From contig CAWBKB010000005.1 in the NCBI GenBank assembly GCA_963789265.1, positions 512,001 through 576,000 on the forward strand: a stretch of 64,000 nt of DNA. The letters run 5' to 3'. The position numbers were made by a program, and so were the translations under genes. This document shows, one piece after another, positions 9,834 to 28,739 of this stretch (its first letter is position 1; each line of letters opens with the position of its first letter). Source of the DNA: an uncultured delta proteobacterium (GTDB lineage: Bacteria; Desulfobacterota; Desulfomonilia; Desulfomonilales; Desulfomonilaceae). The notes below the pieces were generated by a model, which worked only from the letters and a program-made list of their open reading frames with translations, was not told the DNA's origin and ran no database searches.

Positions 9834-11036
9834 TCAAGCTTTAGCGTTCCTTCCAGCAGCAAACAGTATCGGAAGGGAAATCAGTTGAGCCACTACGGAA
9901 AACTCTACGAGAGCAGGGAGCGAGATATCGTACAGGACGCCCATCAGAGCACTTCCACCAAACCAGAACAGGCCGAATGCCATATTGAATATGCCAAAGG
10001 CAAATCCCAATCGGTCGGTTGGGACCAAATCCGCAATAGCGGCCCTCATGACCGATGACTGCGCGCCCATTCCTACTCCCCATAAGGCCATGCCGACGAG
10101 TGCAGAATAATACCCGCCCAGAAAGACAAATGGGGCAAAAAAAGATGAAAAAAAGACCGCGGCAACCAACGAGGGAAGGCCGATACGATCGAAAATACTA
10201 CCGAAAAAAAGAGAAGCCAGGACATGAACACCCATCGCCACGGCATAAAATATCGGAATCGAACCGTCCGAGACTATGGCCATTTTCTTAAAGTGAAAGG
10301 CAATGAGGGAAAAGTCGGCATACCCGGCTGCCACAAACCCGATAGCAATTACGTAGATCCAAAACTTTCGAGAAAGGGCCTTTCCTTCCAACTCTACCGA
10401 GGTGGATCCAATGTCTTCTGGGGTCGGGTACAAACGTGCTGCCACAACCAGCAGGCTCAAAGCTATGAGGGCGGGAACTAACAGTACACCGAAGCTGGTT
10501 TGATAGGTACCCTTGAAATGTAGGACAGCCGCTACTACCAATGGGCCGATTACAGCTCCAGTCTGGTCCAGAGCCTGGTGAAGACCGAAACCCCATCCTC
10601 GGCCGATCTTTTGTGATGCGAGAGATAACATCACATCGCGCGTAGGGGTCCTGATCCCTTTGCCAATGCGTTCCGTCACGATTAGAGCTGCTGCAGTCGG
10701 CCAATGCCCGGCCAATGCCAGAAGAGGCACCGCCAACAAGTTCATGGCGTACCCGAACAGCACTATGGTCCAGTATCTCTTTGTTTTGTCGGTTAAATAA
10801 CCTGATGCGAGGCGCAGGCCATACCCTAGCAACTCCCCGAATCCCGCTACCACTCCCACTACTGTTGCGCTTGCACCTAGCATCTCCAGGAAAGGACCGG
10901 TGATGCTCCTGGCGCCTTCGTATGTGAAATCGGAAAAGAGGCTTATTATCCCGAGCAAGACTACGAACTTAATCGCGGTGGACTTGGAAATGTCGGATAA
11001 TACGGCTGGTGCGCGTGATGAAGTTTCGATGGCCAT
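9834..11036 (-). CDS. MFS transporter
   Basis: 400 aa, about 12 TM; motif A variants GYLTDKTKR and GSIFDRIG. Confidence 0.92.
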   Translation of the reverse strand: MAIETSSRAPAVLSDISKSTAIKFVVLLGIISLFSDFTYEGARSITGPFLEMLGASATVVGVVAGFGELLGYGLRLASGYLTDKTKRYWTIVLFGYAMNLLAVPLLALAGHWPTAAALIVTERIGKGIRTPTRDVMLSLASQKIGRGWGFGLHQALDQTGAVIGPLVVAAVLHFKGTYQTSFGVLLVPALIALSLLVVAARLYPTPEDIGSTSVELEGKALSRKFWIYVIAIGFVAAGYADFSLIAFHFKKMAIVSDGSIPIFYAVAMGVHVLASLFFGSIFDRIGLPSLVAAVFFSSFFAPFVFLGGYYSALVGMALWGVGMGAQSSVMRAAIADLVPTDRLGFAFGIFNMAFGLFWFGGSALMGVLYDISLPALVEFSVVAQLISLPILFAAGRNAKA

Positions 11037-11138
11037 CTGGTCTCCATACCTCTGGTATTGCCAAGGGTTCGTATTACAAATCTAGCACAGCGGTAAGAGA
11101 TTCAATAAGATTTAAGACGGCCAGTTGGGCGTACAGAA

Positions 11139-13286
11139 TCAAACCAGCGTCTGAATCGCTAGGATCAACAATAGACTCATCAGAACGTATCCCGCGTATG
11201 CGTTTACACGTGCTGAATGCATGCGCACCAGGACTGTTGCCAACCATCGGGCCAATCGCAGAACAGGATTGACGGCCAATCTGTCCATTACATACGTTTC
11301 CTCGCGTCCATTTCTTATCGCGGTTCGGAAATGCCCGGCAATGCTCTCCTTTGCATTTTCAACCAGCGACGGGCGGAAGATGGAGTCGAAGATCACGCGT
11401 ACAGGATTGGAAAATCCGGTGGCAGTGTAGGTCATCTCAGGTAGCAGCCGACGAATTCCGCCATCCCAGACGGCTTGGCGTTTAACCGACCGCCCTCTGA
11501 AGAGCAGCCGGAACACTAAAACACTTGCCCCCAGGAGGAACGCTAATACGACCAGGGTGTAAGATGTAGACATCGCAAAGACGACCGGGTTGCTCTTCGA
11601 ACCCCGATGCAAAATCACCAGCCCTCGGCCCGGCAAGATTTCTCGGCCCACCTGCGCGCCCAAGTCATGAAATTCAGATACAAAAGCTTTGTTAAAACTG
11701 GGATTCCTATGAGCTGCGGAGAGAAAAAATGGCGGTACTAATTCATCGGCTACACTTTGATGTACCACAGGAGTGACGACGCGATCTATGACAGGAATTA
11801 TGAAGGTGGGTAAAATTCCAAACAGAAGGCATGCTGTGGCCAAGAAACCCATGGGAATCGACGTACAGCGCTTGGTTTCAGTCGCGGATTCCGCTTCTCT
11901 CGACCTGGCCATCCCCAAAAAACTCATGCCAAATGCTTTGACAAAGCAGGTGACCGCCAATGCAGCGGTAAGCGCCAATGTGGCACCGCACAAAGCGAAT
12001 GCGATCTTGACCCCTGCGGAGGAAAGCACAGAACTCTGAAGAAGCGTTTGCAGCGTCAGCCACTCAGTCACAAATCCGTTGAAAGGAGGAAGAGCTGCTA
12101 TCGAAAGCGCCCCAATCAGAAAGAAGACTGCCGTCCGCGGCATTCTCTTGATCAGCCCTCCCAGCCGATTCATGTCCCTGGTCCCGGCGTTTACATCCAC
12201 GGCGCCGGCACCGATAAACAAGAGCGCCTTGTACAGAGAGTGATTGAGCATGTGATAAAGCCCGACGATGAAAGCGATCCCGGCCAGCGCGGAATGCCCA
12301 TAGGAAATGAAGATGAACCCTGCACCGAGGCAGGCCGTGATTATGCCCATGTTTTCAATGGAACTGTGCGCCAGCATCTTCTTCATGTCGTTTTCGATAG
12401 TGGCGTAAAGGATGCCAATCAGTGCGGATAGGCTTCCGACAACCAGGACTATAAGCCCTTGCCCGACATGGCTAACGGGAAGCAGATCCATGTTCACGCG
12501 CACAATTCCATAGATACCCAGATTGAGAATGATGCCCGACAAGATCGCAGACACATTCGCAGGAGCAGCAGGGTGGGCTCTGGGCAGCCATGTGGAGGAG
12601 GGAATAAGGCCCGCTTTTACGCCAAAGCCGAAGAACGAAAGGAGAAAGATTGCCCATCTGGCGAATTCTCCGAGCCCGCTTGATGCGCTCTTCAGCGATG
12701 CAAAATCGAAGCTCCCCGACGCCCCCGTCAGCAGGAGAAGCCCGAGCGCCGCTGCAACTGTCCCGCCCTCGCTCATGGCCAACATCAAGAGGCCTGAACG
12801 GGTGACTTCCTCGCGTTCATGCTCATAGTTCACGAGCAGATACGAGAGAATGGTCATCACTTCCCAGGCGATCAAGAATGAGACAACGTCTCCGGCAACC
12901 AAGGTCAGGACGATGGATGCAAAAAGCAAGTGATAGAAAACGCCGAACGTTTTTAGACTATATCGGCCCCGATACTTTTCCATGTATTCGGCCGAGAAAA
13001 TCGAAATCGGTAAGTATACGAGCGCAGCAATGAAAATGAACAAGGACGAAATGCGATCCATGTTGAGATCGATTGTCCCGAAATATGGCAGATTCCAGAG
13101 ACCGGCATGAAAAGAGTATCCGAATAAAAGCACTCCGCCGCTGGCTGTTAAGGCTATGACTGAGGCTATGGACCCCACCGCTGCAAGCACCGGCAGGTTC
13201 ATTCGGTCCGGAAGTATAGCGGCGAGAATGGCCCCGATTCCGCATGTGGCCAAAAAGAGAAGAAAAAGGTGGCACGTATCAATCAT
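11139..13286 (-). CDS. HyfB/HycC-like antiporter-type membrane subunit of Ehr complex
   Basis: AWEVM, GFGVKAGLIP..WLPRAHPAAP and LAHSSIENMG motifs; ATG 13286 overlaps the upstream stop. Confidence 0.9.
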   Translation of the reverse strand: MIDTCHLFLLFLATCGIGAILAAILPDRMNLPVLAAVGSIASVIALTASGGVLLFGYSFHAGLWNLPYFGTIDLNMDRISSLFIFIAALVYLPISIFSAEYMEKYRGRYSLKTFGVFYHLLFASIVLTLVAGDVVSFLIAWEVMTILSYLLVNYEHEREEVTRSGLLMLAMSEGGTVAAALGLLLLTGASGSFDFASLKSASSGLGEFARWAIFLLSFFGFGVKAGLIPSSTWLPRAHPAAPANVSAILSGIILNLGIYGIVRVNMDLLPVSHVGQGLIVLVVGSLSALIGILYATIENDMKKMLAHSSIENMGIITACLGAGFIFISYGHSALAGIAFIVGLYHMLNHSLYKALLFIGAGAVDVNAGTRDMNRLGGLIKRMPRTAVFFLIGALSIAALPPFNGFVTEWLTLQTLLQSSVLSSAGVKIAFALCGATLALTAALAVTCFVKAFGMSFLGMARSREAESATETKRCTSIPMGFLATACLLFGILPTFIIPVIDRVVTPVVHQSVADELVPPFFLSAAHRNPSFNKAFVSEFHDLGAQVGREILPGRGLVILHRGSKSNPVVFAMSTSYTLVVLAFLLGASVLVFRLLFRGRSVKRQAVWDGGIRRLLPEMTYTATGFSNPVRVIFDSIFRPSLVENAKESIAGHFRTAIRNGREETYVMDRLAVNPVLRLARWLATVLVRMHSARVNAYAGYVLMSLLLILAIQTLV

Positions 13287-14053
13287 TCCACAATCCTCCG
13301 TTGGATCGATGCAACGGGCTCTGCCACAGCCCCGGCTCGGCGTCCTGCTGCCACGAGTAATCCGTGAATCAACGCGAGAGGCGGCGGCGGGCAGCCGGGA
13401 ATCTCGACATCCACCGGAATCTCTTCGGCCACTCCAGCGCCGCAGGTGAAGCTCGGTCCAAAGACTCCTCCGGAGAGCGCACATGTGCCTACCGCAATTA
13501 CCTTTTTGGGCGTGGGCACAGCATTGTACGCTCTTTGCAACGGGAGCCGCATGTTATCCGTCACCGGACCGGCAACCAGCAATACGTCCGCTTGCCTGGG
13601 GGTCGGAGTCATGAAGAAGCCCAGCCTGTGGACGTTGTAGTAGGGCTTGCCGAGCTGTTCAATCTCGCTCAAGCATGCCCGGCAAGCTCCCGCGTCGAGC
13701 ACACGTACGTGCATAGAACGAGCAAAGGGCTTGCCCAGCCTACGTGACGAATCGGTCTCATCGGCGAGAGAAACTGCCCATTCATAACCCCACTCGCGAT
13801 CGAGAGGCTCAGACAGCCCACGCGAACACCGAAAACACTGAATGCAATGCCGGTAATCCACGGAGATTCGCTCCTCCGTAAGCCGGATAGCTTTCGTGGG
13901 ACATACGGGGACGACCGAAGACTGCGTTCCTGCTCCCCCGGTCAACATGCCGCAAGGCCGCCCGGGAGAAACGCCGGCAGCGGTCTCGACAGAGTCCGGA
14001 TATAACGTCGTCTTGGTCCCCGTGCGCAGTCCCATTAAAACCCATTTGGACAT
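13283..14053 (-). CDS. Small subunit (HycG/NuoB-like) with N-terminal ferredoxin-like segment
   Basis: CPTKAI...CIQCFRC followed by GACRAC, GTCA and IPGCPP. Confidence 0.88.
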   Translation of the reverse strand: MSKWVLMGLRTGTKTTLYPDSVETAAGVSPGRPCGMLTGGAGTQSSVVPVCPTKAIRLTEERISVDYRHCIQCFRCSRGLSEPLDREWGYEWAVSLADETDSSRRLGKPFARSMHVRVLDAGACRACLSEIEQLGKPYYNVHRLGFFMTPTPRQADVLLVAGPVTDNMRLPLQRAYNAVPTPKKVIAVGTCALSGGVFGPSFTCGAGVAEEIPVDVEIPGCPPPPLALIHGLLVAAGRRAGAVAEPVASIQRRIVE

Positions 14054-14067
14054 GTCTCACTCTCCTC

Positions 14068-15675: not shown

Positions 15676-15682
15676 TATGCGG

Positions 15683-17131
15683 TCACCTCCCCAGTGCATT
15701 TGCCGCCTGGCGTAAGAGCTCAAGAAGCGGCCCGGGAATATAAAGTCCGAACAGACAAACCGGGATTGCCGCCAGCGACAGACATGCAGCGTAACTCTTT
15801 GGCAACGCGGGCCATCCGGGGCGAGGCATAGGCTTTCCGAATACCATGCGGGAGACGTGAAACATGATTCCACAGAAGGCTATAACTACAAAGAGAGCCA
15901 GCATGCCCGTGATTAAGTATTGGCCGGTGGAAACTCCCGCTTTTAAGATGGTGAGTTCGCTTAAAAAGACAGCAAAGGGAGGAGCCCCTGAAATCGCCAG
16001 TGCCCCCAGGAGAAGTGACACGCCAACCAGGGGCGATTCCCGAATAAGGCCTTGTACCGAGTTAATGTCGCGCGCGCCGGCGATTCTGAGCGCGGCACCG
16101 GCGGCAAAGAAACAGAAAGATTTTGCAACTGTATGGGTAACCATCTGATAGATGGCGCCAAAATCGGCGGCAGCTCCGCCCAGGCCAACGGCCACCAAAA
16201 TAATGCCCATGTGTTTTATGGTAGAAAACGCGAAAAGGCGTTTATATTCTTTTACTTGAATCAACAGGAAGGCCGCGAAACCGGTTGACACCAAACCGAA
16301 AATCAAAATCCATTTCTCGGGGGTGCCACCTGAAATCGCTTGTACGGCCGGTGTTACTCTCAATATGGCGTAAAGAGCAGTGGAAGTCTCCACACCGGAA
16401 AGAAGCGCGCAAACCGGCGACGGCGCCTGGCTGTGAGCATCAGGAAGCCAGGTGTGGAGAGGAACCAAACCGGCCTTGGTTCCGAATCCGATAAGGATGA
16501 ACAGGAATCCTGTCTGCAGCATTGCCGGAGGCATTTTCGGCGCGGCTGCAACCAGGCCCGACCAAGTCAAAGGCCCCCCTCCCGAGAGGGTCATGCCCCA
16601 ATATAGAATCAAGATCCCGAAAAGTGCGAGTGCGGCCCCCATGCACGTGAGCACAGCATATTTCCACGCGGCTTCAACAGCCTCGGGGGTGTTCGGAAAG
16701 CTGACAAGAAATACCGACAAAAGCGTGGTTAGCTCGACCGCGATCCAAACCAGCGTGACATGCGACAAGACTGGAACAGCCAGCATCGAAACAAGGAAAA
16801 GGTTGTAGCGCCAATAATAGCGTCGCGCCCTTTCAGCTCCGTTGGATCCAACTGTCTTTCCGATGTATCCCCACGAAAAAACGGCGGCTGTGAGTCCGAC
16901 AAAGGAAACCAGCAACAGGAGCAACCCACCCAAGGCATCGCATGCGATCCATCCTTTTATTGCCACAACATTGTGGCCGGCAGAGGTTTTCAGAGCTGCA
17001 TGCAAAGAGGCGATGAAAACCACCACAGTCCCCAGGATGGTAGTCAAAGGTGCAAGGCTACGAACTTTTGTCGGAATCCAAGAAAGGGCTGCAGCAACAA
17101 CAGGTACCAGAAGGATGTATATGAGTTCCAT
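15683..17131 (-). CDS. HyfF-like antiporter-type membrane subunit
   Basis: WIAVELTT, EAAWKY and GFGTKAGLVPLHTWLPDAHSQAP motifs. Confidence 0.92.
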   Translation of the reverse strand: MELIYILLVPVVAAALSWIPTKVRSLAPLTTILGTVVVFIASLHAALKTSAGHNVVAIKGWIACDALGGLLLLLVSFVGLTAAVFSWGYIGKTVGSNGAERARRYYWRYNLFLVSMLAVPVLSHVTLVWIAVELTTLLSVFLVSFPNTPEAVEAAWKYAVLTCMGAALALFGILILYWGMTLSGGGPLTWSGLVAAAPKMPPAMLQTGFLFILIGFGTKAGLVPLHTWLPDAHSQAPSPVCALLSGVETSTALYAILRVTPAVQAISGGTPEKWILIFGLVSTGFAAFLLIQVKEYKRLFAFSTIKHMGIILVAVGLGGAAADFGAIYQMVTHTVAKSFCFFAAGAALRIAGARDINSVQGLIRESPLVGVSLLLGALAISGAPPFAVFLSELTILKAGVSTGQYLITGMLALFVVIAFCGIMFHVSRMVFGKPMPRPGWPALPKSYAACLSLAAIPVCLFGLYIPGPLLELLRQAANALGR

Positions 17132-17137
17132 AAGTTG

Positions 17138-17824
17138 CTATTCCTCTATCAGGGCGGCCATCTCGCCTACCGCGGTGGTTCCGATGTGTTCGTGGACCTT
17201 CATAATAAGGATTCCCATTACCCTTGCGATGATGAGTAACTCAAAAGCGGCAGCCAGTTCGGCTATAAGCGGAAGATTCGGGGCAATCGAAATACCGGCG
17301 AAAAATGCCCCGTTCTCCATGGACAGAAGGGCGATTACCTGTGGAACCGCCTCACGCCTCACAGTCATCGCGTAGGCTCCCAGGAGTAGACCTGCCAGAC
17401 CGATGGGCAGGTTAACCGAAGCAGCTCCTCCAGCCGGGGCCGCTTTAAGGAGGGGCACTGAAACGAAATAGGCGAAAACAACTAGGACGAGCGAAATTAA
17501 TAGGGATGTGGGGATATTCAAAGCCTGGGAGATCTCTCGGCGAGAGCGAAGTTCATTTCCCAGCCTTCCTAACAAGAGCCAGGGAAGCAATGCGACCTTG
17601 ACGGCAAGAGTTATTCCGCCGACTACAAAAAGTTCGTTCGAGCCGTTTTGGTACCCCAGGAGAAATGCAGATGCCGCGAGAAGCGCAGCCTGAATCACGA
17701 ATGTCCTAAGACACGCGAGAACCTGCCGCGTGGCAATGAGACCAAAGGCCGTCAAAAGGAAGAGAGCCGCGGCAAGCGCATTTAACTCGGTCAATGGAAG
17801 AATTGTGGTGTTTGTGCCAGGCAT
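17138..17824 (-). CDS. HyfE-like membrane subunit
   Basis: Hydrophobic 228 aa with QVIALLSMENG motif; start placed at ATG 17824. Confidence 0.85.
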   Translation of the reverse strand: MPGTNTTILPLTELNALAAALFLLTAFGLIATRQVLACLRTFVIQAALLAASAFLLGYQNGSNELFVVGGITLAVKVALLPWLLLGRLGNELRSRREISQALNIPTSLLISLVLVVFAYFVSVPLLKAAPAGGAASVNLPIGLAGLLLGAYAMTVRREAVPQVIALLSMENGAFFAGISIAPNLPLIAELAAAFELLIIARVMGILIMKVHEHIGTTAVGEMAALIEE

Positions 17825-17835
17825 GCCGGTCCCTC

Positions 17836-18787
17836 CTAAAATTGCAGCAGTCGCGTGATTACGGCAGCGACGGATGTTACAAAAGCGGCGCCGAGAAATT
17901 CCGGAATTCTGAAAAGTCTCAGTTTGGCAAGCGAGGATTCGATGGCGACCAAAACCAGGACAAATGCCAGGATTTTTGTCAAGATTAGCGGAACTGCCAG
18001 CAACAACTCTCCGACAGATTGTCCGTGAGCAAGACCCCAGGGACTGACCAGCACGTTGAGGAATATGCATAGAAGTACAAAGAACTTCATGCATCCCCCC
18101 CATTTCATCAAAGCGGCGCCTCGGCCAGAATACTCCAGTCCCTTGGACTCATCCACCATGGCTAGCTCGAAATGGCCGGAAGGGCTGTCTACAGGGATGC
18201 TTCCGGTTTCAGCGATGATCAGCATCAGGAACGACAGAACCACCAGCACATGCGCGGGTTCAAAGAAATTCGCCATAGGCGTGACCCAGTGTTTTTGAAC
18301 GATGTATGGAATGGTGGAACCTGCAACGAATGAGACGGTGAAGAAAACAATCATGAACACCGGTTCGGCTAAAAATCCCACCATCCTAGTACCGGCTGGC
18401 CCCCATTGGACCGTACGGGTTTGCAGTATCAATGGCCGCAAGCGTCGCAAAAAAGCCACCGAGAGCTAGAATAAAGCCACCTCCCAGCATGTCTGCCATG
18501 AAAGCGAAGAAGAGCGGGTAGCTCGTGAGGACAGGTATGAGCAGCGTCACGAAGATCGGCGTGACAAATACTATGTACGGGGTGACGCGAAAAATCCAAG
18601 AAGAGTGCTCGGATACGACTTCGTCTTTGTGAAAGAGCTTCCATATATCAAAGTACGGCTGAAAAACGCTGGGGCCTCGCTTGGACTGGATTCGCTCTTT
18701 AAGGCGACCAAGCACTCCCTTTACGAGAGGGGCAAAAGCCATTACCACGAGCACCTGCATTAAATTAAACAGGATTTTCTGGGCCAT
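17836..18787 (-). CDS. HyfC/HycD (NuoH-like) membrane subunit, frameshift near 18388
   Basis: IQSKRGPSVFQPYFDIWKLFHK, AETGSIPVD and LEYSG...MKW motifs; AGGAGG RBS. Confidence 0.88.
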
Positions 18788-18899
18788 GCGTTTACCTCCT
18801 GTCGCCATAGCCGCTTGTTAACAAGTCATGTCGAATCGCTTTCAAGCGAGTGATATTGGTTAGCTATCGAATAAGAGATAACCGGCAAATGGAGAATTG

Positions 18900-18936
18900 C
18901 ACTGACCTGAGCACCATCATGGTGCTCAGGTCAGTG
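18900..18936. repeat. Perfect palindrome, 18-bp arms with 1-nt spacer, in the ehr leader
   Basis: CACTGACCTGAGCACCAT-C-ATGGTGCTCAGGTCAGTG. Confidence 0.9.
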
Positions 18937-19059
18937 GCACCCAACATCCATTCACGAGGTGCTGGGTGCCACGGATCGAGGCTTTGTGAGATCCGTGCTG
19001 TATTTATCGCTTGATAACGAACCAATATCACTGCTCGAATACTCCCTATATAAGTCGAG

Positions 19060-19096: not shown

Positions 19097-19108
19097 TACG
19101 TTTAAACT

Positions 19109-19137: not shown

Positions 19138-19175
19138 GTAAGATCTATCTCTTAAGAGACTCCTACCCCATAGCG

Positions 19176-19233
19176 GTAGGAGTCATAAGCTCATAGGAAA
19201 AATCCCGGAGCAGTTCAGGCAGACTCCATTGCC
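19176..19233 (-). ncRNA. Fluoride riboswitch (crcB motif) upstream of ehr operon
   Basis: Minus strand GGCAATGGAGTCTGCC-TGAACT-GCTC...GAGC-TTATGACTCCTAC: P1 GGCA/TGCC, pseudoknot GGAGT/ACTCC, stem GCTC/GAGC. Confidence 0.85.
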
Positions 19234-19273
19234 TTCAATAGTGTCGCGCATAATTACAAAACAAATGCACCCT

Positions 19274-19279: not shown

Positions 19280-19339
19280 GCATGCTGAGAGCAACCAAGC
19301 GATCTGTTTCCTAAGTGCAGTCCTGTGTCATTTTTTAGG

Positions 19340-19413
19340 GTTAAGATTGCTTCGCTGCGCTCGCAATGACAGGTCCCCGAATGTCCTTGCGAGCGCAGCG
19401 AAGCAATCTTAAC
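19340..19413. repeat. REP-like long inverted repeat, same hairpin family as the cargo at 9706 and 25571
   Basis: GTTAAGATTGCTTCGCTGCGCTCGCAATGACA-10nt-TGTCCTTGCGAGCGCAGCGAAGCAATCTTAAC. Confidence 0.85.
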
Positions 19414-19507
19414 TTTGATGCGGACTCATATTTATGCCATCGCGTACTACACCCCCTTGAGCCACCCGAGAGATGACTGCAAGGTTGCCGGCTCCACAAG
19501 TGCTGTA

Positions 19508-20427: not shown

Positions 20428-21936
20428 CTAATTTCGCTCATAGTCCCTTCTGAATGTCCTCTTGTAAAGGTCTTCGCCATAGGCGGTCTGCAACGGCTCT
20501 CCTTCGATTAGCCGAAAAGTTCGTGTCCCGTCGGTTCGCCTTTCTGCTCGTAAGAAAAGGGCGTTGTTCACTTTCTTGTCAAAAAAATCGCGGGCGAATT
20601 CATACAAATGCGTGACAAAGAAAACCTTGATGTTTTTCTCCAATAATGCGCTGACTATCTGCCTTGCGATCTCCGAGCCTTCTCTTGTATTGGTTGCTGC
20701 AAACGATTCATTGAAAAGCACCAGGGAATTTGACGTTATCATGTCTGCAATATCACTCATCCTGCTCAGTTCTTCGTCAAATTTCCCGCTTTTCATGGTA
20801 GGATCTTCTTCCCTCTTGTAGTGCGTGAAAAGGCCACTGCAAATATTGGCACAGAAAGATTCAGCCGGCACAAACATGCCGCATTGCATCATCAATTGGG
20901 ACAAACCTATGCTTCGCAAAAAAGTCGATTTGCCGCCCTGGTTGGCCCCTGTAATGATCACGAGGTCTTTGTTCTCTGCGTTCACATCGTTACCAACGAT
21001 ATCTCGCTTCATGGTAAGGGCCAAACAGACATCGTATAAGCCCTTAAAGGAATGTCTGCGTTCGCCGGCAGCCACCGGTACGGGAAAAGATATTGGCTCC
21101 CCCATTTGGGCAAGCTGTTCAGATAGATTTAAACAGCCGATGTAAAAGGCCAATTCGACTCGTAACATTTCAAAAAAACTATCAATATGATCGGCAGATT
21201 GAGCAAGTGCGTTGGCAACCAGTCTGATCCCCCTGTTTCTTAATTCCGCCACTGCGTTGGCACCGGCTTCATCCCGATCGGCGACATAATAGGTGTAAAC
21301 GGGAGCGCTTTCGCCAAAGATCCGCTCCAACCAACTTTGTCTTTTATCCAGTGGCTTGCGAAGCACGTAATTGGTGCCTTCGTTGCCTTTTCCTAATTCG
21401 GCACTGATCAAAACCCCCTGGCGAAATTTCAATTCCTTTAAATAATTTTCGACAATGGCGAAATATTCATCATCAAGTTCTCTTTTGATCATCGCGAAAA
21501 ACGTGGTAAAGCCTTCTGACTCAAATTTTTCTGCATGCTCGTCGGCAATATTCTTTAGCTTTTTGAGCAAGCCCACAAACATTTGCAGCATTTCTATCGC
21601 GCTATGCAGGAGACTCGAGGGAAGTTTGCTGAAAAAGCCCATCCAACTTCTTCTCTTGTTTTCAATTGATTCAATCGGGAGTTGATAGATGTCCCTGACA
21701 ATAGCCGAATTTTTCAGGCAATCCTTGAGTATGTTTTGGCGATAAATCAATGTATCCGGATCGGCTGAACCGCACAATACAGCGCTCTTTGCCACTTCAA
21801 ACAAGAATTTGTCACCAAGTGCCACGGCATGGAACATCGTGTTCAATTCCAGGTCCTGTGTTAGCGTTTGTTCATTCGACGGCAATTCCTGCTTCAGGTC
21901 GAAATCTCGATCTTTATACATAAGGAAAGCCTTCAT
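20428..21936 (-). CDS. MutS-related ATPase, subunit B (domain V, no mismatch or Smr domain)
   Basis: TGANQGGKST, LFNESFAATN and FVTHLYE motifs; ATG overlaps the upstream TGA (ATGA). Confidence 0.88.
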   Translation of the reverse strand: MKAFLMYKDRDFDLKQELPSNEQTLTQDLELNTMFHAVALGDKFLFEVAKSAVLCGSADPDTLIYRQNILKDCLKNSAIVRDIYQLPIESIENKRRSWMGFFSKLPSSLLHSAIEMLQMFVGLLKKLKNIADEHAEKFESEGFTTFFAMIKRELDDEYFAIVENYLKELKFRQGVLISAELGKGNEGTNYVLRKPLDKRQSWLERIFGESAPVYTYYVADRDEAGANAVAELRNRGIRLVANALAQSADHIDSFFEMLRVELAFYIGCLNLSEQLAQMGEPISFPVPVAAGERRHSFKGLYDVCLALTMKRDIVGNDVNAENKDLVIITGANQGGKSTFLRSIGLSQLMMQCGMFVPAESFCANICSGLFTHYKREEDPTMKSGKFDEELSRMSDIADMITSNSLVLFNESFAATNTREGSEIARQIVSALLEKNIKVFFVTHLYEFARDFFDKKVNNALFLRAERRTDGTRTFRLIEGEPLQTAYGEDLYKRTFRRDYERN

Positions 21937-23468
21937 GATTTTATGCGTTCCTTTAAACAACCATAAGTGATGCGATGCTTCTCGGCGATGGATAGCGCGT
22001 ATGAAAGCCCGTCAGCAGGCCTTCTCACAATTTTATATGTTCGCAATGCAGGATTTTCCGGGACAACCGTGCTGACCATGCTGACGGTTTGTTCGCCCAA
22101 AGAAGCCAATTCGTCGATGAATGTCACCCAAACGCACAAGGAGCCTAATTCCATTATTCTTTCCATTACCTTCTTGCTCAAGAAAACTGCGTCTTGTAAT
22201 GTTGCGGAAGTGAATATTTCATTTAGTATCAGAACGCTGTTCGGCGTGGCCCGGTTTAGAATATCGTGAACCCTGACCAGGTCTTCTTGCAGTTTGCCGC
22301 GGAGATTCCTGATATCTTCGCGCCTCTCAAAATGCGTAAAGATCCTGTCAAACAGAAAGAGTCGTGCTTTCTTGCCCGGCACTGGACAGCCCAAGACGGC
22401 TAGATAATGTAGCTGCCCGAAAGTGCGGCCAAAGGTTGTCTTACCTCCCTGGTTCGGACCGGATACCACAAATATGCGTTCCTTACCTTTCAGGTAAAAA
22501 TCATTACAGACGACGGACGAATTCTCGGTAAGGAGCTTATGCGCCAGGGCTAAATCAAATCCTTCATGATCATAAACTTCCTTGTCCGTACCGGAAAGCT
22601 GCGGGTAACAGAATTTCAACCCGGTCAACCTGAGCTTTTCGATATACTTTAAGTAGGCAACATAAAATTGTATTTCCCGGTCAAAGACGGCTATAGTTTG
22701 GTCCAGATAACCGCGGTTATGTTCGCAATAATTATCGAGATTTAGAAACACTTCGGGATATAATTTGGCTACGAAGTCTAATATTGCCGCTTCAACATGA
22801 TTCATGCCCGACCACATTGGGGGCTTGGTCTTGTAATTTTTTACGTCACCCTGTTTAAATTTTTCGAATGTTTTTTCCACCTCGACGCTGTAATCAATCT
22901 CAGATTCATACTTGCGCACCTTGACAGAGTTATCCTTAACGAGCATGCAATATTTTACCGTTGATAATTCGGCTTTAAGCTTTTTCGTTTCCGCCAGTAG
23001 TGACCCAAAGCCACCGGAGTTGACATAGTTCGTCGCGTATTCGCGGAACATCAAAAGGCCTCGTGATTTCAAATTGGCAAGGTTCAGATCGCGTACCAGG
23101 CTAGTAACGGCCTCGCAATAAATTTCTACTGCCTCCAAAAACCATCCTTCTTTATGGTACTTGTAGTGAAGCTTATCTTCCAGGGAAAGGTATCGATGCA
23201 TTGTAGTCATTTTGAGCGCAAATGATTCTATATTTTCCAGCAGAATTTCGTTTTCAAGGTCCTGTGCTATTTCTTGGCGGTACTTGATGGCATCGATACC
23301 ATTTAACGAAGTGTAAAAAAGCGGTTTTAAATTGTATGTCTCCTTACCGGCCGTAATTGCATCCACAATCTGATCGAGATTCAAATCAACAAAGAAGGCA
23401 GGCGCCTCAAGGATTTCCTCTTTTGCGCCGTCTTCAGGTCTTTCAAATAGTATGCTGTGGAAAGTCAT
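21933..23468 (-). CDS. MutS-related ATPase, subunit A (domain V, no mismatch or Smr domain)
   Basis: SGPNQGGKTT, IFTHFE, ILNEIFTS, WVTFIDEL and SYALSIA motifs. Confidence 0.88.
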   Translation of the reverse strand: MTFHSILFERPEDGAKEEILEAPAFFVDLNLDQIVDAITAGKETYNLKPLFYTSLNGIDAIKYRQEIAQDLENEILLENIESFALKMTTMHRYLSLEDKLHYKYHKEGWFLEAVEIYCEAVTSLVRDLNLANLKSRGLLMFREYATNYVNSGGFGSLLAETKKLKAELSTVKYCMLVKDNSVKVRKYESEIDYSVEVEKTFEKFKQGDVKNYKTKPPMWSGMNHVEAAILDFVAKLYPEVFLNLDNYCEHNRGYLDQTIAVFDREIQFYVAYLKYIEKLRLTGLKFCYPQLSGTDKEVYDHEGFDLALAHKLLTENSSVVCNDFYLKGKERIFVVSGPNQGGKTTFGRTFGQLHYLAVLGCPVPGKKARLFLFDRIFTHFERREDIRNLRGKLQEDLVRVHDILNRATPNSVLILNEIFTSATLQDAVFLSKKVMERIMELGSLCVWVTFIDELASLGEQTVSMVSTVVPENPALRTYKIVRRPADGLSYALSIAEKHRITYGCLKERIKS

Positions 23469-23539
23469 AGCAAACACCCAGGGACACTTGCCATCCCGTT
23501 TGCCTTCGGCATTGAATTGTAGCTTGCTCCAATGAAACC

Positions 23540-23561
23540 AAAAAACCCACCTTGCGGTGGG
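23540..23561 (-). terminator. Riboswitch-controlled terminator (MutS unit)
   Basis: Minus strand CCCACC-GCAA-GGTGGG-TTTTTT. Confidence 0.8.
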
Positions 23562-23599
23562 AGAGTCTTTATTGCACGACCCGCCGCAATGTTCTCGCG

Positions 23600-23645
23600 G
23601 CAGGAGTCATCAGCCTGTCAGGCGGTTTGGGGGAACTCCATCCCC
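23600..23645 (-). ncRNA. Fluoride riboswitch upstream of the MutS-related pair
   Basis: Minus strand GGGGATGGAGTTCCCC-CAAACC-GCCTGACAGGC-TGATGACTCCTGC, near-consensus crcB motif. Confidence 0.93.
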
Positions 23646-23684
23646 TCACGTTTCTTTCTTTCCCTACTTCTCTACTTTTTACAA

Positions 23685-23690
23685 AGTCAA
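23685..23690 (-). promoter_or_regulatory. Putative -35 box for the MutS riboswitch unit
   Basis: TTGACT 40 nt upstream of the aptamer. Confidence 0.5.
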
Positions 23691-23763
23691 GGGCCTCACG
23701 GAAATCGCCGCGGCTATATCATAAGTCAGACTGTCGGGTTTTTCGAAACTGGTTTACAAGATT

Positions 23764-24180
23764 CTACCGGCGCCCAGTCGCCACTACCTCCGCAACTTCT
23801 CTGAGCTTCCCTATCAGCAAGGCCGTCCTAGGATCGAGGTAATCCGCCAAGCCGGGCGGAACCTCCCCGTATCTGCGAAGACGAGAGCCTTCAAGCTCCG
23901 AAAGCGAGACCCAAAGTACCGAGCACGAACTCAAGATCATTTTCTCTGCAATGTGAACCGAACCGTCCAGGTTCAACGTGTCCCGCATTTCTCTAAGGAT
24001 AGTTTGCATGTCCTCCACGAGTTCTGAAATTGTTCGTCCTTGTTCGGACGAAAGGCTGTTCCGAACCTCGTACAGGGTAGACCTGACCTTCTTGCCCGTT
24101 GCCCATTCATCGAACTGGCAGAGAGCCTTGTCCAAGAGGTACAGTGTTGTCGAGATTCCGCGAATATGGTTTTCACTCAT
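23764..24180 (-). CDS. Hypothetical helical protein
   Basis: 138 aa, 44 nt downstream of enolase; LRRYGEVPP motif recalls N-terminal domains of some bacterial dynamin-like proteins (recollection, unverified). Confidence 0.7.
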   Translation of the reverse strand: MSENHIRGISTTLYLLDKALCQFDEWATGKKVRSTLYEVRNSLSSEQGRTISELVEDMQTILREMRDTLNLDGSVHIAEKMILSSCSVLWVSLSELEGSRLRRYGEVPPGLADYLDPRTALLIGKLREVAEVVATGRR

Positions 24181-24224
24181 GGGTAAGATCTTCTCTTTCC
24201 CGGCGAATTTTCCACGCTACGGCC

Positions 24225-25502
24225 TTATTTAGGCAGCGGCGACTCGAAAACAGCCGCCTTGCCTAGTTCCGCCTCAATCTCTAGGAGCCGGTTGTATTTT
24301 GCGATTCGCTCACTGCGACTCGTTGACCCGCTCTTAAGTTGTCCGCCACCCATTGCAACGGCAAAGTCAGCCAAAAAGGTATCTTCGGTTTCGCCGGAAC
24401 GATGGGAAATCACATATCCCCAGCCGGCCTTGTGACACAGTTGAATTGCTTCAATCGTTTCGGTAACTGTACCAATTTGATTCAGCTTGATCAGCGCTGC
24501 ATTGGTGGTCTTTTCCTTAATGCCGCGGGCAATGAACCGTGTATTGGTCACATAGATGTCGTCGCCCACGATCTGAACCTGCTCGCCGAGCACGGCCGTA
24601 TGCTCGCGAAATCCTTCCCAATCATTCTCTGCAAGACCGTCTTCAATTGAAACTATTGGATACTTTTCAACCCAGGATTTGTAGAGATCCGTCATTTCCG
24701 AGCTGCTCTTTTTGCCCTGACCTGATTTGCTCAGGTTATATAGGCCGTCCTCAAAGAAAGAACTGGCTGCCGGATCAAGCGCCAGGGCTATGTCCTTGCC
24801 CGGTTTAAAGCCTGCTGCCTCTATAGCCTCGAGAATTACCTGGCACGCCTCATCGTTGCTTTTGAGATTGGGTGCGAACCCGCCCTCGTCGCCGACGCTC
24901 GTTGTATATCCTTTGCCCTTGAGAATTTTCTTCAGGGCGTGGAAACTCTCGGCACTGTAACGCAGGGCTTCAGCGAATGTTGGAGCGCCAATCGGCGTTA
25001 CCATGAACTCCTGAAAATCCACGCTATTGTCCGCATGCTTTCCGCCATTCAGTATATTATTCTGGGGTACGGGGATTTTCACAGTCCCGGGACCTCCCAG
25101 GTAAGCATACAAAGGGAGGCCGGAGACCACGGCCGCCGCACGAGCCGCCGCCATAGAAACACCCAGAATGGCATTGGCCCCGAGCTTGCTTTTAGTGGGC
25201 GTCCCGTCCAGTTCGATCATTACTCGGTCAAGCTCTGCTTGCCGTGTCGACGGAAGGCCGACTACCGCCGGAGCGATTATCCGGTTCACATTATCTACGG
25301 CCTTGAGAACACCTTTGCCACCGTACCGCTTCTGATCTTTGTCGCGCAATTCAAGTGCCTCGTTCTCCCCCGTGGAAGCCCCTGAAGGGACAGAAGCCGA
25401 AGCCGTTACTCCGTTGCTCAACTCCACAAAAACACGGATCGTCGGGTTTCCACGAGAGTCGAGAACCTCCAGTGCCCTAACAGAAACGATCTTGTCATCC
25501 AT
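24225..25502 (-). CDS. eno: Enolase
   Basis: [33 protein letters not shown] and SHRSGETED motifs. Confidence 0.97.
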
Positions 25503-25534
25503 AACCGTGTCCTTTCTTCAATTGTTGACATTAA

Positions 25535-25683
25535 GTACCAATTCACTTACGCGGAGAAGCTTCTGTCACTTGTCATTGCGAGGAGTCCAGCGACGAAGCA
25601 ATCTAAACGGCGTCTAACGGAAGAGATTGCTTCGCTTTGCTCGCAATGACAATCTTTCACCGCTCGTAAGTGAAAATGCGTGC
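25535..25683. mobile_element. MITE, sister copy of 9670-9816
   Basis: Left end GTACCAATTCACTTACG, degenerate right end CGTAAGTGAAAATGCGTGC; GACATTAA duplicated at 25527-25534 and 25684-25691; same internal hairpin doublet. Confidence 0.85.
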
Positions 25684-25687
25684 GACA

Positions 25688-26428
25688 TTAAGCGGTATTT
25701 GTTTCTCCCATGATCGACAGCAAAAGTCTCCACCCGCTGCACCAACCAACCGCGCTTATCAAAGCGGCTGAATCTTCCTCGGTTTGGCTGCCCTGGAACT
25801 CGAACTGGAACGACCGTGCATATTTTACGAGGTGGTCAAATATGTATGGCACCGAGGACCGGTGGACAGACATTTCACCAGCCAATCTCGAGGATTCGTC
25901 TTCAATCAGGTGCTGCCTGCATCTCAGAGTTGAGGCCGTGCCGGCGCATCTTCCGCAAATGGTGTCGCGCCAATAGGGTTCGGTTCTTTTGGCCAACCGG
26001 AGCAGTTCGCCCAGATCTCGCCCTTGTCGAACGATTTTCTCTTTTACGATTCCTTTGCTGTGAGGGCCGTATCCCTCCTCACACATTAAGCATGGGCCCT
26101 TATCCCCGAGCCGTCTTCTCAATCGCCCATGTTGTGCCGGTCCGTTCAACTGGAAAGCATTCAAAGCGGCTCTCATAAGATCCTCATATAGAAGAGCGGG
26201 GCCGTGCATGTACCCGCTACGAAAGGACGCTTCCACGATCATCCAACCCCACGCATGGCGCTCGCAGAAACCCCAGGCTTTGCGCATACGCTGCCGCGTC
26301 GAGGGGTTCATGATGCTTCCCTGAATAAACCACCAGAGAAAGTGAATTTCCCCGGGCGAGAGCCGGAAAGCATCCGGAGGCGACAACTGCAACGCAGTAC
26401 CTGTGGTACGAATGTGGGTGTGCTGCAT
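25688..26428 (-). CDS. Cys/His-rich hypothetical protein (DUF6062-like, probable Zn binding)
   Basis: GFCERH, CLMC, CGRC and CRQH motifs; the longer ORF start runs through a repeat, so ATG 26428 is preferred. Confidence 0.7.
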   Translation of the reverse strand: MQHTHIRTTGTALQLSPPDAFRLSPGEIHFLWWFIQGSIMNPSTRQRMRKAWGFCERHAWGWMIVEASFRSGYMHGPALLYEDLMRAALNAFQLNGPAQHGRLRRRLGDKGPCLMCEEGYGPHSKGIVKEKIVRQGRDLGELLRLAKRTEPYWRDTICGRCAGTASTLRCRQHLIEDESSRLAGEMSVHRSSVPYIFDHLVKYARSFQFEFQGSQTEEDSAALISAVGWCSGWRLLLSIMGETNTA

Positions 26429-26468
26429 TATTTTCTTGCGGCTGAGCACAATCGGTTCCTTTGCAATA

Positions 26469-26640
26469 GTCTCGGAAGTATTGTCGGCATACGTGATGCA
26501 TGTTGGCGCCCAATTTAATTTGGTGGGACAGGCTTCCAGCCTGTCGCTGATGGACGGGCAGGATGCCCGTCCCCACTGCATGGTGCTCGTTGCCCACAGA
26601 TCATTTTCTCTTTCCGTGATTACTTTCGAGAATCTCTTTA
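26469..26640. repeat. REP doublet (GTGG foot) inside an imperfect inverted-repeat shell; related copy at 42724-42840
   Basis: GTGGGACAGGCTTCCAGCCTGTC...GACGGGCAGGATGCCCGTCCCCAC; tail TTCCGTGATTACTTT.GAG shared with the 42.8 kb copy. Confidence 0.7.
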
Positions 26641-26698
26641 CATCCCTACCGATTATTCGGTCGACGTTCCGAACCACAAAATAGGATCATTTGTCCGT

Positions 26699-28525
26699 TT
26701 ATTTCTGACTTTCTTCACAGATCCCGGTCAAGGCATGTGCAGCGGATTCCAACCGCGCCACTTCATCGAGGATTGCTTCGGCATGTTCCTTCCTCTTGGT
26801 ATACGCGGCCTGAATAGCTCCGTGCGTGGCTGCAATGGTTTCTTCAAAACGTTGATCCAGTGATAAGGCGAAGCCGCGAAACGCGTTGTTAAGGTTTTGC
26901 AAGGTCGCCCATCGAAGGTTTTCCACGTTCTGCCGAACCAGCGCGTCAATCTGTCTGCCCAGGCGCTTCTTGAGTCTGCTGATACGAAGAGACGCCGGCA
27001 GGAGTCTATCAAGGGCCTCTTCCGGAATCACAATTGGCAGAGTGGGTACCCGCTTCCTGAGCACCCAGTGAGGCCGCCGCTTCACCTCAAACGCTTCGGA
27101 GCTTTCCGGAGCATGATATGGGATGTTAAACAGCTCTGCCGCGGCTTTACGAATCGCTTGGATCAACTCGTCTGCTCGCTGCTGGTGCGGACGCAATGTT
27201 TCCGTCACATGCCGGCCAAATCCTTGAGTCACATCCTCGGCCGAACCTTGGAAGAATGAGGTTACCTCCTCTGCCAGAGCATCCATAACAGTCGCTTCCT
27301 TCACTTCCCCGTCTTTCATGGCTGAGAAAGATGCCTCCACTACGCTCTCAAGGTGATCTACGGACGTTTGCCGGAGCGCTTCGGCCTGCTGCTCCAGTGA
27401 TTCCAGCGTACGTTTTCTGTCACCGGTCAACAAATCTTGCGCGGCGACTCGCTGGCCTTCCGCATTTTTCAGCTCTCTTTCGAAGACTTGTAAGCGGCTT
27501 TCCAGGTCATCCAGGGGCATTTGCAGGGTACGGATCGCCAGCCGGAGTCTCATCACAACTTCTTCAAGAGCGTCGGTAACTTTTCGTCCCACGGCTTCAC
27601 GCAAAGCGTTCGCCTTTTCGGAAACGAGAAAACATATCAGATGGTCTTCGACCTCATTTAAGCCGCTCTGGGTCCATAAGTCGGCATCTCCGAAAAGCTT
27701 GGCGTCGAGACCGCGGCGTGAAGATACACAGAAAATCGGATGATCGTTTGTCACCTGAAGTTTTTCGGTGAGCACTTTCTTGAAAAAAGCTAAAGCGGTT
27801 TCTCTTTCATGCCCATTGAGGTAATCCACCTTGTTAAAGATGAAAAAGAGACGGGAAACTCTGGATCGGACCGCTTTCAGAAACTCGGCTTCCACTTCTG
27901 TGAGGGGCGGGTCCGCCGAGACGACAAATAGTGCCGCGTCGCACTGGGGAAGAAAACTGAGAGTAGCTTCCGTATTGTGCGTAAAAGTGGACCCAATCCC
28001 AGGGGTATCAATCAAAACGACGCCATGTTGGAGAATGGCAGCGGGGTGAAAGATCTCCACCTGAAGAACTCCAAGTCGGTTTTTCGGGTTGCCCTCTTCG
28101 GTGACAAAGCTTTGTAAGATTTCGGCAAGCTGTTCGGAGGTTTTTCCGGCAAATTCCTTCACGGGTCTTTCGTCCAGGTAGCAGACCCGGATTTTTCGCT
28201 CGGGACCATATTCCACAAAAGTTGGGATGGCCGTTAACGGCACAACGGAAGTCGGCAAAAGCGCCTCGCCAAGAAAGGCGTTTAGAAGTGTGCTCTTGCC
28301 ACGCTTGAATTGTCCCAATACTGCCAGGTGGAAGCGCCCTTCTTCCAGACACGTGCGGAGGGCGAGTAATCTCTCCCGGTCGCCGTAGAACTGACTTCCG
28401 AGAGATTCCACAATTCTTAACGCTTCGCCGAGGAGTAGCTGGAAATCGATTATAGCTCGGGAATCTTGCTCGTCCGGGCAAGTTAGCGTTTCTAAAGCGG
28501 AATTCTCGCCTATCTCGGATCTCAC
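26699..28525 (-). CDS. Bacterial dynamin-like GTPase
   Basis: G1 GQFKRGKS, G2 LPTSVVPLT, G3 DTPG, G4 NKVD; long helical C-terminus; AGGAGG before GTG. Confidence 0.92.
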   Translation of the reverse strand: MRSEIGENSALETLTCPDEQDSRAIIDFQLLLGEALRIVESLGSQFYGDRERLLALRTCLEEGRFHLAVLGQFKRGKSTLLNAFLGEALLPTSVVPLTAIPTFVEYGPERKIRVCYLDERPVKEFAGKTSEQLAEILQSFVTEEGNPKNRLGVLQVEIFHPAAILQHGVVLIDTPGIGSTFTHNTEATLSFLPQCDAALFVVSADPPLTEVEAEFLKAVRSRVSRLFFIFNKVDYLNGHERETALAFFKKVLTEKLQVTNDHPIFCVSSRRGLDAKLFGDADLWTQSGLNEVEDHLICFLVSEKANALREAVGRKVTDALEEVVMRLRLAIRTLQMPLDDLESRLQVFERELKNAEGQRVAAQDLLTGDRKRTLESLEQQAEALRQTSVDHLESVVEASFSAMKDGEVKEATVMDALAEEVTSFFQGSAEDVTQGFGRHVTETLRPHQQRADELIQAIRKAAAELFNIPYHAPESSEAFEVKRRPHWVLRKRVPTLPIVIPEEALDRLLPASLRISRLKKRLGRQIDALVRQNVENLRWATLQNLNNAFRGFALSLDQRFEETIAATHGAIQAAYTKRKEHAEAILDEVARLESAAHALTGICEESQK

Positions 28526-28586
28526 GATAAGCCCTCCTGTTTGTACCTTTCAATCAGCGGAGTTCCACGGATAGACGGTTGAAAAT

Positions 28587-28609
28587 AAAAAACCCACCTT
28601 TTGGTGGGT
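28587..28609 (-). terminator. Riboswitch-controlled terminator (dynamin unit)
   Basis: Minus strand ACCCACC-AAAA-GGTGGGT-TTTTT. Confidence 0.8.
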
Positions 28610-28647
28610 ATCCGCAGGACCGGTCTCCCACCGCGAAGTCTCCGACG

Positions 28648-28693
28648 GCAGGAGTCATCAGCCCGTGACGAGCATTTGGGGGACTCCATCCCC
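28648..28693 (-). ncRNA. Fluoride riboswitch upstream of the dynamin-enolase unit
   Basis: Minus strand GGGGATGGAGTCCCCC-AAAT-GCTCGTCACGGGC-TGATGACTCCTGC. Confidence 0.9.
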
Positions 28694-28733
28694 TTTTAGC
28701 CATTTCCTATTTTGTATAGCCACGGTTGTGAAA

Positions 28734-28739
28734 AGTCAA
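28734..28739 (-). promoter_or_regulatory. Putative -35 box for the dynamin riboswitch unit
   Basis: TTGACT 41 nt upstream of the aptamer, with TATACAAAAT in the -10 region. Confidence 0.55.

Follow-up and report, generated by a model that had tools for sequence, protein, structure and literature searches.

Fluoride riboswitch units without Fluc or CLC-F exporters in an uncultured delta proteobacterium and its relatives

The accepted view is that fluoride resistance rests on one of two exporters, namely Fluc (CrcB) and CLC-F, and the canonical operons headed by the fluoride riboswitch (Rfam family RF01734) carry crcB/Fluc or eriC-F/CLC-F genes. Other genes have also been described behind this motif: a passage of Weinberg 2010 (PMC2864571) names mutS and formate hydrogen lyase genes, and a passage of a 2024 review (PMC11139923) attributes to the 2012 paper of Baker et al. 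links with exporters, Na+/H+ antiporters, pyrophosphatase, HAD, enolase and also formate hydrogen lyase. The present analysis concerns a 64 kb stretch of DNA (the window; G000:C5:512001-576000) from the genome of a soil bacterium, an uncultured delta proteobacterium (assembly 6.06 Mb, 9 contigs, 95.57% complete, 6.07% contamination), in which three fluoride riboswitches each head a set of genes. An earlier note on this DNA, made from its letters, had named enolase, formate-hydrogenlyase-like and MutS-like genes as published associates of the riboswitch, and the passages just cited bear it out, the first for mutS and formate hydrogen lyase and the second for enolase and formate hydrogen lyase. 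The island in the window shares with the canonical operons the aptamer family, the terminator of an ON switch and companion families already published; it differs from them in having no Fluc or CLC-F gene behind the switches or elsewhere in the genome, a lack that extends to 118 of 122 genomes of its class.

A further system of this kind is the FRM operon of E. cloacae (ppaC-uspA-eno-gpmA-crcB-orf5249), in which eno rose 176-fold with fluoride and the accessory genes were shown to contribute to resistance, according to the relevant passages of PMC5533749. As described in those passages, it resembles the island in being a riboswitch-controlled multi-gene set with an extra fluoride-inhibited enzyme (enolase) and stress proteins; it has crcB, whereas the island has none and carries dynamin-like, MutS4, energy-converting-hydrogenase-related (Ehr) and major facilitator superfamily (MFS) genes that the FRM operon lacks. 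No literature linking the fluoride riboswitch with dynamin was found, and none, by title, linking it with major facilitator genes; for MutS only an unrelated paper came up. Most single associations between a gene and the riboswitch had been noted before. New with respect to the literature searched are a riboswitch-rich class of bacteria almost without both exporters, the exchange of Ehr genes for a Na+/H+ exchanger, and the MFS family in fluoride neighbourhoods, anticorrelated with the exporters.

Rfam cmscan (gathering score 34) located the riboswitches, all three matches lying on the minus strand and covering model positions 1-64 in full; the genome-wide search returned the same three matches only. 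The crcB-type aptamers proposed in the earlier note were recovered here, its coordinates being the cores of the following matches.

28642..28702, minus strand, fluoride riboswitch 1 (aptamer), RF01734, 41.9 bits against the gathering score of 34
28592..28609, minus strand, intrinsic terminator of riboswitch 1 (expression platform), 7-bp stem then TTTTTTATTTT
23594..23654, minus strand, fluoride riboswitch 2 (aptamer), RF01734, 56.1 bits
23546..23561, minus strand, intrinsic terminator of riboswitch 2, CCCACCGCAAGGTGGG then TTTTTT
19170..19242, minus strand, fluoride riboswitch 3 (aptamer), RF01734, 48.1 bits

Among the terminator-like sites between 9000 and 28990, the top-ranked lies directly 3' of riboswitch 1 and the second directly 3' of riboswitch 2. 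Two T-tailed hairpins were read by eye downstream of riboswitch 3, which is preceded by a promoter-like TTGACA-18-AATTAT (19279-19250); TTGACT boxes, likewise seen by eye, precede riboswitches 1 and 2. These elements suggest three separately switched transcription units of the terminator-controlled ON type, designated A, B and C behind riboswitches 1, 2 and 3, with terminators presumably competing with the aptamers in all three; that fluoride opens them is expected from the riboswitch family. By the mechanism of the class, the aptamer would overlap the intrinsic terminator, and the binding of fluoride and magnesium would stabilise the aptamer, block the terminator and allow transcription to continue. 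Fifteen genes would be placed under the three switches. The gene sets named in the earlier note stood as regards their families, which were recovered with Pfam and NCBIfam models; its 329-aa open reading frame (ORF) for the Cys-rich protein had to be shortened to about 246 aa, its HAD protein is only HAD-like, and the first Ehr gene is split. The ORF list of the window over-extends several gene starts.

We explain the island as a fluoride-inducible stress regulon of three separately switched units, with no Fluc/CrcB or CLC-F and with the unit roles proposed below, and regard this explanation in its entirety as somewhat probable. Confidence is high for a fluoride regulon without a canonical exporter, and moderate to low for the roles proposed for Ehr and MFS.

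The evidence on the exporters is as follows. A six-frame search of the genome with PF02537 (CrcB/Fluc) gave 0 matches, the same search being positive in 11 of 14 control genomes. Three CLC genes (PF00654) are present, one of them frameshifted. The signature of CLC-F, as given in a passage of PMC11139923, is GNNLI or GMGLI plus GREGT/V; a Niastella CLC directly behind a riboswitch, taken as positive control, reads AGNNLI...GREGT. In the two intact CLC genes of the genome the motifs are GHGVP or GHGTD together with GREGP, for the frameshifted copy the GREGP motif alone was read, and the intact proteins match ClcA-type chains at E 1.7e-45 and 1e-27 versus 4e-13 and 7e-16 for CLC-F 6d0j. A CLC-F identity was rejected for these genes, which have a chloride-type signature and of which the two intact ones are closer to ClcA. 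The lack of Fluc/CrcB and CLC-F that the earlier note had seen in the window was thus found again in the rest of the genome, where PF02537 has no match and none of the three CLC genes bears the CLC-F signature, and it holds for nearly the whole class.

With this genome counted in, the relatives number 41; 24 of them have an above-cut-off riboswitch and 1 has CrcB. In the class (Desulfomonilia-type, 122 genomes) the riboswitch passes its cut-off in 62 genomes and CrcB in 4, both together in one genome only; when only high-quality class genomes are counted, CrcB is above the cut-off in 4/70. CLC genes are carried by 72 of the 122 genomes, none of them directly behind a riboswitch, and the CLC-F signature was seen in none of the nine CLCs read from the class. 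The stretches fetched behind class riboswitches contain no small CrcB-like gene, except in one genome (G022). A class genome that is 99% complete and consists of 2 contigs shows the orders riboswitch, dynamin, Na+/H+ exchanger, Usp, MFS and riboswitch, Na+/H+ exchanger, neither CrcB nor CLC being present, so that the lack cannot be put down to draft assembly. The class genomes are of free-living size (1.7-10 Mb among those listed).

The comparison was extended to a sample of the phylum comprising 301 genomes at least 90% complete. CrcB is above the cut-off in 125 of them, 15 have a CLC-F-like gene (14 match the Niastella protein at E<=1e-55, and one is split over contig ends), and 172 have neither as judged by these queries. 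According to a passage of PMC11139923, Fluc or CLC-F is present in more than 85% of the genomes of a reference set, and exporter-less genomes tend to belong to reduced intracellular symbionts; the exporter-less portion of the phylum sample (172/301) far exceeds the remaining under 15% of that set.

The gene content behind the riboswitches of the relatives was surveyed over up to 14 kb in 40 genomes (28 riboswitches above the cut-off and 3 below), the stretches being annotated by blast to the window proteins and by Pfam. The recurring modules are a set of dynamin-like, Cys/His, enolase and helical protein genes, a Na+/H+ exchanger with Usp, the MutS pair, Ehr and MFS. The gene families of the window thus recur with fluoride riboswitches, in keeping with the earlier note; its further idea of one coordinated system had to be given up, the units being modules that assort independently between genomes and not one machine.

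The exchanger of the relatives (PF00999) was confirmed in 11 genomes and Usp in 7. Within the genus (G002 to G006) an exchanger homolog and Usp stand just before MFS, the exchanger being confirmed by Pfam in G003, G004 and G006. In this genome and its sister G001 the Ehr genes precede MFS in the slot of exchanger and Usp, and the order riboswitch, Ehr, MFS is also found in G012. In this genome no protein passes the PF00999 cut-off, nor is there any homolog of the exchanger found in the relatives. From this swap it is inferred that Ehr and exchanger do the same kind of job, namely cation/proton translocation under fluoride stress. Unit C of the window and the gene beyond it comprise the following features.

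18846..19039, minus strand, dispersed repeat resembling a miniature inverted-repeat transposable element (MITE-like), leader positions ~132-325 of 361
17836..18808, minus strand, Ehr subunit, NuoH/HyfC-like, split, PF00146 on both halves
17138..17824, minus strand, HyfE-like membrane subunit of Ehr, sub-cut-off match to NF008556 (E 1.9e-13)
15683..17131, minus strand, Ehr antiporter-like subunit, HyfF-like, PF00361, 170 bits
14068..15675, minus strand, Ehr large subunit, fused NuoC/NuoD-like, 535 aa, PF00329, PF00346 and PF00374
13283..14053, minus strand, Ehr small subunit, NuoB-like, with N-terminal ferredoxin-like stretch, PF01058, 87.6 bits
11139..13286, minus strand, Ehr antiporter-like subunit, HyfB-like, PF00361, 171 bits
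9834..11036, minus strand, MFS transporter, 400 aa, PF07690, 82.1 bits against 33.4
8940..9398, minus strand, cyclic-nucleotide-binding-domain protein, PF00027

The Ehr genes are separated from riboswitch 3 by a leader of 361 nt, whose repeat gives 75 blastn rows across the genome, one being the leader itself. The gaps between the six Ehr genes range from -4 to 14 nt, the HyfB-like gene overlapping the NuoB-like gene by ATGA, and 102 nt lie between the last of them and MFS. The gene for the cyclic-nucleotide-binding-domain protein begins 435 nt beyond MFS; it follows MFS in the loci of seven relatives and in 8 of the 80 MFS loci described below. The six Ehr subunits are homologous to HyfC, E, F, G-type, I-type and B of the E. 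coli Hyf/Hyc systems; in contrast to these, the complex stands under a fluoride riboswitch, is followed by MFS, fills the slot of the sisters' exchanger and Usp, and has no partner redox enzyme in its unit. The large subunit has no CxxC pair at either end, its cysteine list showing one C-terminal Cys, in SNAECDR, and by sequence reading the small subunit keeps its four cluster cysteines. NiFe is presumably held by two CxxC pairs of the large subunit, and a six-gene set without these pairs is what we take to be the Ehr pattern; Ehr are reportedly the energy-converting-hydrogenase-related complexes of Marreiros et al. 2013.

Unit C would accordingly be concerned with ion handling in our proposal: a nickel-free Ehr with two antiporter-like subunits would take the cation/proton translocation job of the sisters' exchanger and Usp, and this job would consist in relieving the acid load and opposing the trapping of fluoride that the pH gradient drives. 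The MFS protein that closes the unit would export fluoride, or an anion tied to fluoride stress.

The MFS family was followed beyond the window. Of the 41 class relatives, 15 carry orthologs at 57-89% identity, with 16 copies in all, 14 of which stand downstream of a riboswitch. When species representatives were scanned, at least 594 loci were found, of which the best 80 (53-88% identity) were analysed; they come from Desulfobacterota, Chloroflexota, Planctomycetota, Nitrospirota, Bacillota, Acidobacteriota, Bacteroidota, Cyanobacteriota, several proteobacterial classes and Methanobacterium, more than ten phyla overall. Signature stretches of the family are TYEGARS(I/V)T and FGLH(E/Q)ALDQ. The loci were scanned with two covariance models (R1, R2) built from the riboswitches of this analysis, whose matches agree with Rfam matches in the same genomes where these were compared; 45 riboswitch matches were kept (E up to 0.0054) and the three weakest rows dropped. 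A riboswitch was found in 35 of the best 80 loci, in 25 of them upstream on the MFS strand at distances from 61 nt (Moorella) to 8.7 kb, the distance being 392 nt in a Fervidifonticultor metagenome-assembled genome. If the count is restricted to loci whose upstream sequence reaches 5 kb or more (52 loci), 25 have a riboswitch, 18 of them upstream on the same strand. The neighbours in the 80 loci include the Na+/H+ exchanger (19), Usp (17), dynamin (14), enolase (12) and the MutS pair (11). The riboswitch-linked rows lie scattered on a tree of 79 rows made quickly by maximum likelihood, two loci under 300 aa having been dropped; the label changes 17 times, and at least 8 of these changes are forced by well-supported branches.

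The relation of this family to the exporters was also followed. In 50 MFS-bearing genomes of other lineages the riboswitch was found in 37, CrcB in 16 and any CLC in 24; 21 of the 50 have neither CrcB nor CLC, and 17 of these 21 have the riboswitch. In the phylum sample, CrcB is present in 11/57 MFS-bearing versus 114/244 MFS-less genomes (odds ratio 0.27, Fisher p 1.6e-4, a value that overstates the significance since related genomes are not independent), and a CLC-F-like gene in 0/57 versus 15/244. In 5 of the 11 genomes that have both MFS and CrcB, the two genes share a strand and are no more than 3.5 kb apart, the distance being 50 nt in one genome and 306 nt in another. Anticorrelated presence together with adjacency is the pattern of functionally related, partly redundant genes.

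A different, longer MFS protein (515-518 aa, PF07690) is encoded downstream of a riboswitch in two genomes of a sister family (L046:9797-11344 and L060:2707-4263), and this second type may also belong to fluoride regulons.

It is tempting to speculate that the conserved 400-aa family is a third, so far unrecognised kind of fluoride efflux, carried by gene transfer into more than ten bacterial phyla and into methanogens, and that with Ehr or the exchanger it replaces Fluc and CLC-F throughout the class; we offer this tentatively and consider it unlikely in this full form. Several observations weigh against it, against the MFS role in our preferred explanation or against the role of Ehr. Two of the 16 class copies of MFS stand alone, and 45 of the 80 loci, including the Brocadia, cyanobacterial and Legionella-type clades, have no riboswitch within their flanks. 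In the Niastella island MFS stands beside CrcB and two riboswitch-linked CLCs, and its presence within CrcB/CLC-F islands argues against simple substitution. Four class genomes (G009, G010, G013 and G015) have a riboswitch and neither an MFS ortholog nor CrcB, and MFS is therefore not the general answer; in the phylum sample it occurs in only 46 of the 172 exporter-less genomes. The structure model has the MFS fold (pLDDT 81.8), and its Foldseek matches, TM 0.69-0.76 to MdfA, NorA, sialin and OxlT, are those of a generic fold at 15-18% identity in which drug, sugar-acid and anion carriers are mixed; the family profile gave no match at E<=0.01 to the sequences of solved structures. The counts across relatives are not independent of one another. 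Finally, the Ehr complex may be inactive here, its first gene being frameshifted in the assembly by one extra base near 18393 compared with the intact gene of the sister genome. The public contigs over the island list no indel, and one contig (run X2) ends loosely at precisely the position of the frameshift; other genes of the assembly are split as well, namely the CLC on contig 1 and the helicase upstream of riboswitch 1, so that indel errors of the assembly are possible.

The next most probable reading is that these cells have no fluoride exporter, tolerance being achieved by pH and ion homeostasis (Ehr or the Na+/H+ exchanger), the extra enolase and repair, with the MFS protein carrying some other cargo. 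We consider it possible, though on the doubtful side. One example would resemble the sugar-phosphate stress response of E. coli: the block of enolase would accumulate phosphorylated intermediates, the HAD-like protein would act as a phosphatase on them, and MFS would release the products. Such a course is favoured by the co-occurrence of the HAD-like gene with MFS in several operons and by a PHO4 phosphate transporter beside MFS in 5 of the 80 loci, but the HAD-like gene is found in 4 of the 80 only, and its product has Asn in place of the second motif I Asp of the phosphatases. Another cargo would also suit the sharing of an island with CrcB and CLC-F in Niastella, the direct adjacency of MFS to crcB in G241 and G316, the riboswitch-bearing class genomes that do without MFS, and the structure search, which gives no pointer to a halide carrier. 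Against it stand the rarity of MFS together with CrcB and its complete separation from CLC-F in the counts of the phylum sample, and partial redundancy therefore suits the data better than an unrelated cargo.

That the island is an ordinary fluoride regulon of the kind already described, MFS being a passenger at the operon end with no role in fluoride stress, appears quite improbable. The published links of mutS and formate hydrogen lyase (in the passage of PMC2864571) and those of enolase, HAD and antiporter credited to the 2012 paper (in that of PMC11139923) agree with it, as do the gap of 102 nt in front of MFS and the many MFS loci that have no riboswitch; however, linkage to the riboswitch recurs in at least eight separate places on the MFS tree, the riboswitch lies directly upstream of MFS in Moorella and in the Fervidifonticultor genome, and MFS adjoins crcB in several genomes. 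A canonical or divergent channel that was missed, in the unassembled 4-5% or as a sequence too distant for PF02537, is less probable still: the genome is incomplete and in part contaminated, small dual-topology proteins are easily overlooked and sub-threshold CrcB fragments adjoin MFS in two phylum genomes, but no above-cut-off match was obtained in 118/122 class genomes, among them 66/70 of high quality and the nearly complete one in 2 contigs, the search succeeds in most controls and in 125/301 phylum genomes, and apart from G022 no small CrcB-like gene stands behind the class riboswitches.

A class of large-genome environmental anaerobes does not fit the accepted view of fluoride resistance, about half of its genomes keeping fluoride riboswitches and almost none having either exporter. 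This raises the question of what removes or neutralises fluoride in these cells. Two clonable candidates are at hand, the highly conserved MFS family, which adjoins crcB in some genomes and shows an overall anticorrelation with it, and the orphan Ehr complex that replaces the exchanger. Were the MFS family indeed one of efflux, a whole class of free-living anaerobes would do without Fluc and CLC-F by means of it and a riboswitch-controlled Ehr or exchanger. The matter bears on fluoride tolerance in anaerobic communities and on the engineering of fluoride-tolerant strains for organofluorine work.

The remaining units were characterised in the same way. Unit A comprises four genes.

26699..28525, minus strand, dynamin-like GTPase, 608 aa, PF00350 Dynamin_N, 100 bits against a cut-off of 27
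25688..26428, minus strand, Cys/His-rich protein, ~246 aa, from the alignment, with invariant CxxH...CxxC...CxxC...CxxH
24225..25502, minus strand, enolase paralog, 425 aa, TIGR01060, 643 bits against a cut-off of 300
23764..24180, minus strand, small helical protein, 138 aa, with orthologs in riboswitch operons of relatives

At 16 of the 28 above-cut-off riboswitches in the 40 relatives, the leading gene encodes a dynamin-like GTPase. The protein of the window reads GQFKRGKST, DTPG and NKVD, which we take to be the motifs of a dynamin-type GTPase. Bacterial dynamin-like proteins include DynA of B. subtilis and IniA/IniC of M. tuberculosis; these share with the island protein a dynamin-type GTPase domain at the N terminus, a long helical region after it and a place in a stress-inducible operon. 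Unlike DynA, the island protein has a single GTPase and is distant in sequence (NCBIfam 76.8 bits, the cut-off being 1600); its gene stands under a fluoride switch and precedes that of the Cys/His protein. The start of the latter was placed at 26428, the 329-aa ORF being too long. Seven members of its family gave no Pfam match even at E<=10. Of its ESM Atlas neighbours, 16-27% of members carry DUF6062; an assignment to this family (PF19538) was rejected at the level of the HMM, the model having no match to the gene in the genome search. The small helical protein belongs to no Pfam or NCBIfam family.

The genome holds a second enolase elsewhere, 60% identical to the riboswitch-controlled one, which is 77% identical to the enolases in fluoride islands of Moorella and another bacterium. 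The greater closeness to other island enolases suggests that the gene travels with the island and, as far as identities go, hints at a horizontally spread lineage of island enolases. By analogy with the E. cloacae FRM operon, this second enolase would offset the inhibition of glycolysis by fluoride, and the dynamin-like GTPase, the Cys/His protein and the small helical protein could, again by analogy, form a membrane-stress module.

Two further observations concern this unit and its surroundings. Two public contigs (run X1) join across 25586-26521, which would remove the Cys/His gene; the shorter side of the join has 25 letters and is weak. Upstream of riboswitch 1, a Ski2-like helicase (DEAD plus DSHCT; 28831-30922, minus strand) is encoded in two overlapping ORFs; it is conserved upstream of the island in five genomes belonging to the genus.

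Unit B consists of a pair of MutS-type ATPases and the HAD-like protein.

21933..23468, minus strand, MutS4A-type ATPase, MutS domain V only, PF00488, 67.5 bits
20428..21936, minus strand, MutS4B-type ATPase, PF00488, 86.6 bits
19508..20254, minus strand, HAD-like protein, 248 aa, NCBIfam HAD-IB at 24.2 bits, below the cut-off of 45

PF00488 is the sole Pfam match on both MutS proteins, and the stop of the first overlaps the start of the second as ATGA (21936-21933). MutS4A and MutS4B are described by Lin, Nei and Ma 2007 (PMC2190696) as adjacent paralogs that have only the C-terminal ATPase and overlap at stop and start. Judged by domain content and gene overlap, the pair of the island fits this description, the overlap and the ATPase-only layout being common to both; the passages of PMC2190696 on the pair give it no function and no link to fluoride. 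Motif I of the HAD-like protein reads SSDWN(E/Q)C, D-W-N being present in all six aligned orthologs. It lacks the DxD of HAD phosphatases, and this identity was rejected for it; although later HAD-type motifs are present, the D-W-N and the sub-cut-off score led us to use only the label HAD-like. In the proposed explanation the ATPase pair and the HAD-like protein are given no biochemical role.

Two minor observations concern the surroundings of this unit. A long perfect palindrome lies at 19330-19420 of the window, between the HAD-like gene and riboswitch 3. It is a member of a different dispersed repeat family, for which blastn gives 137 rows in the genome, and the public contigs show loose ends at this place, as expected for a repeat. 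In the sister genome G001, a 141-aa hotdog protein is encoded between riboswitch 2 and MutS4A (L039:4789-5214) and matches the fluoroacetyl-CoA thioesterase family (PF22636, E 1.1e-34); its homolog in this genome, 36% identical, lies elsewhere, on contig 7.

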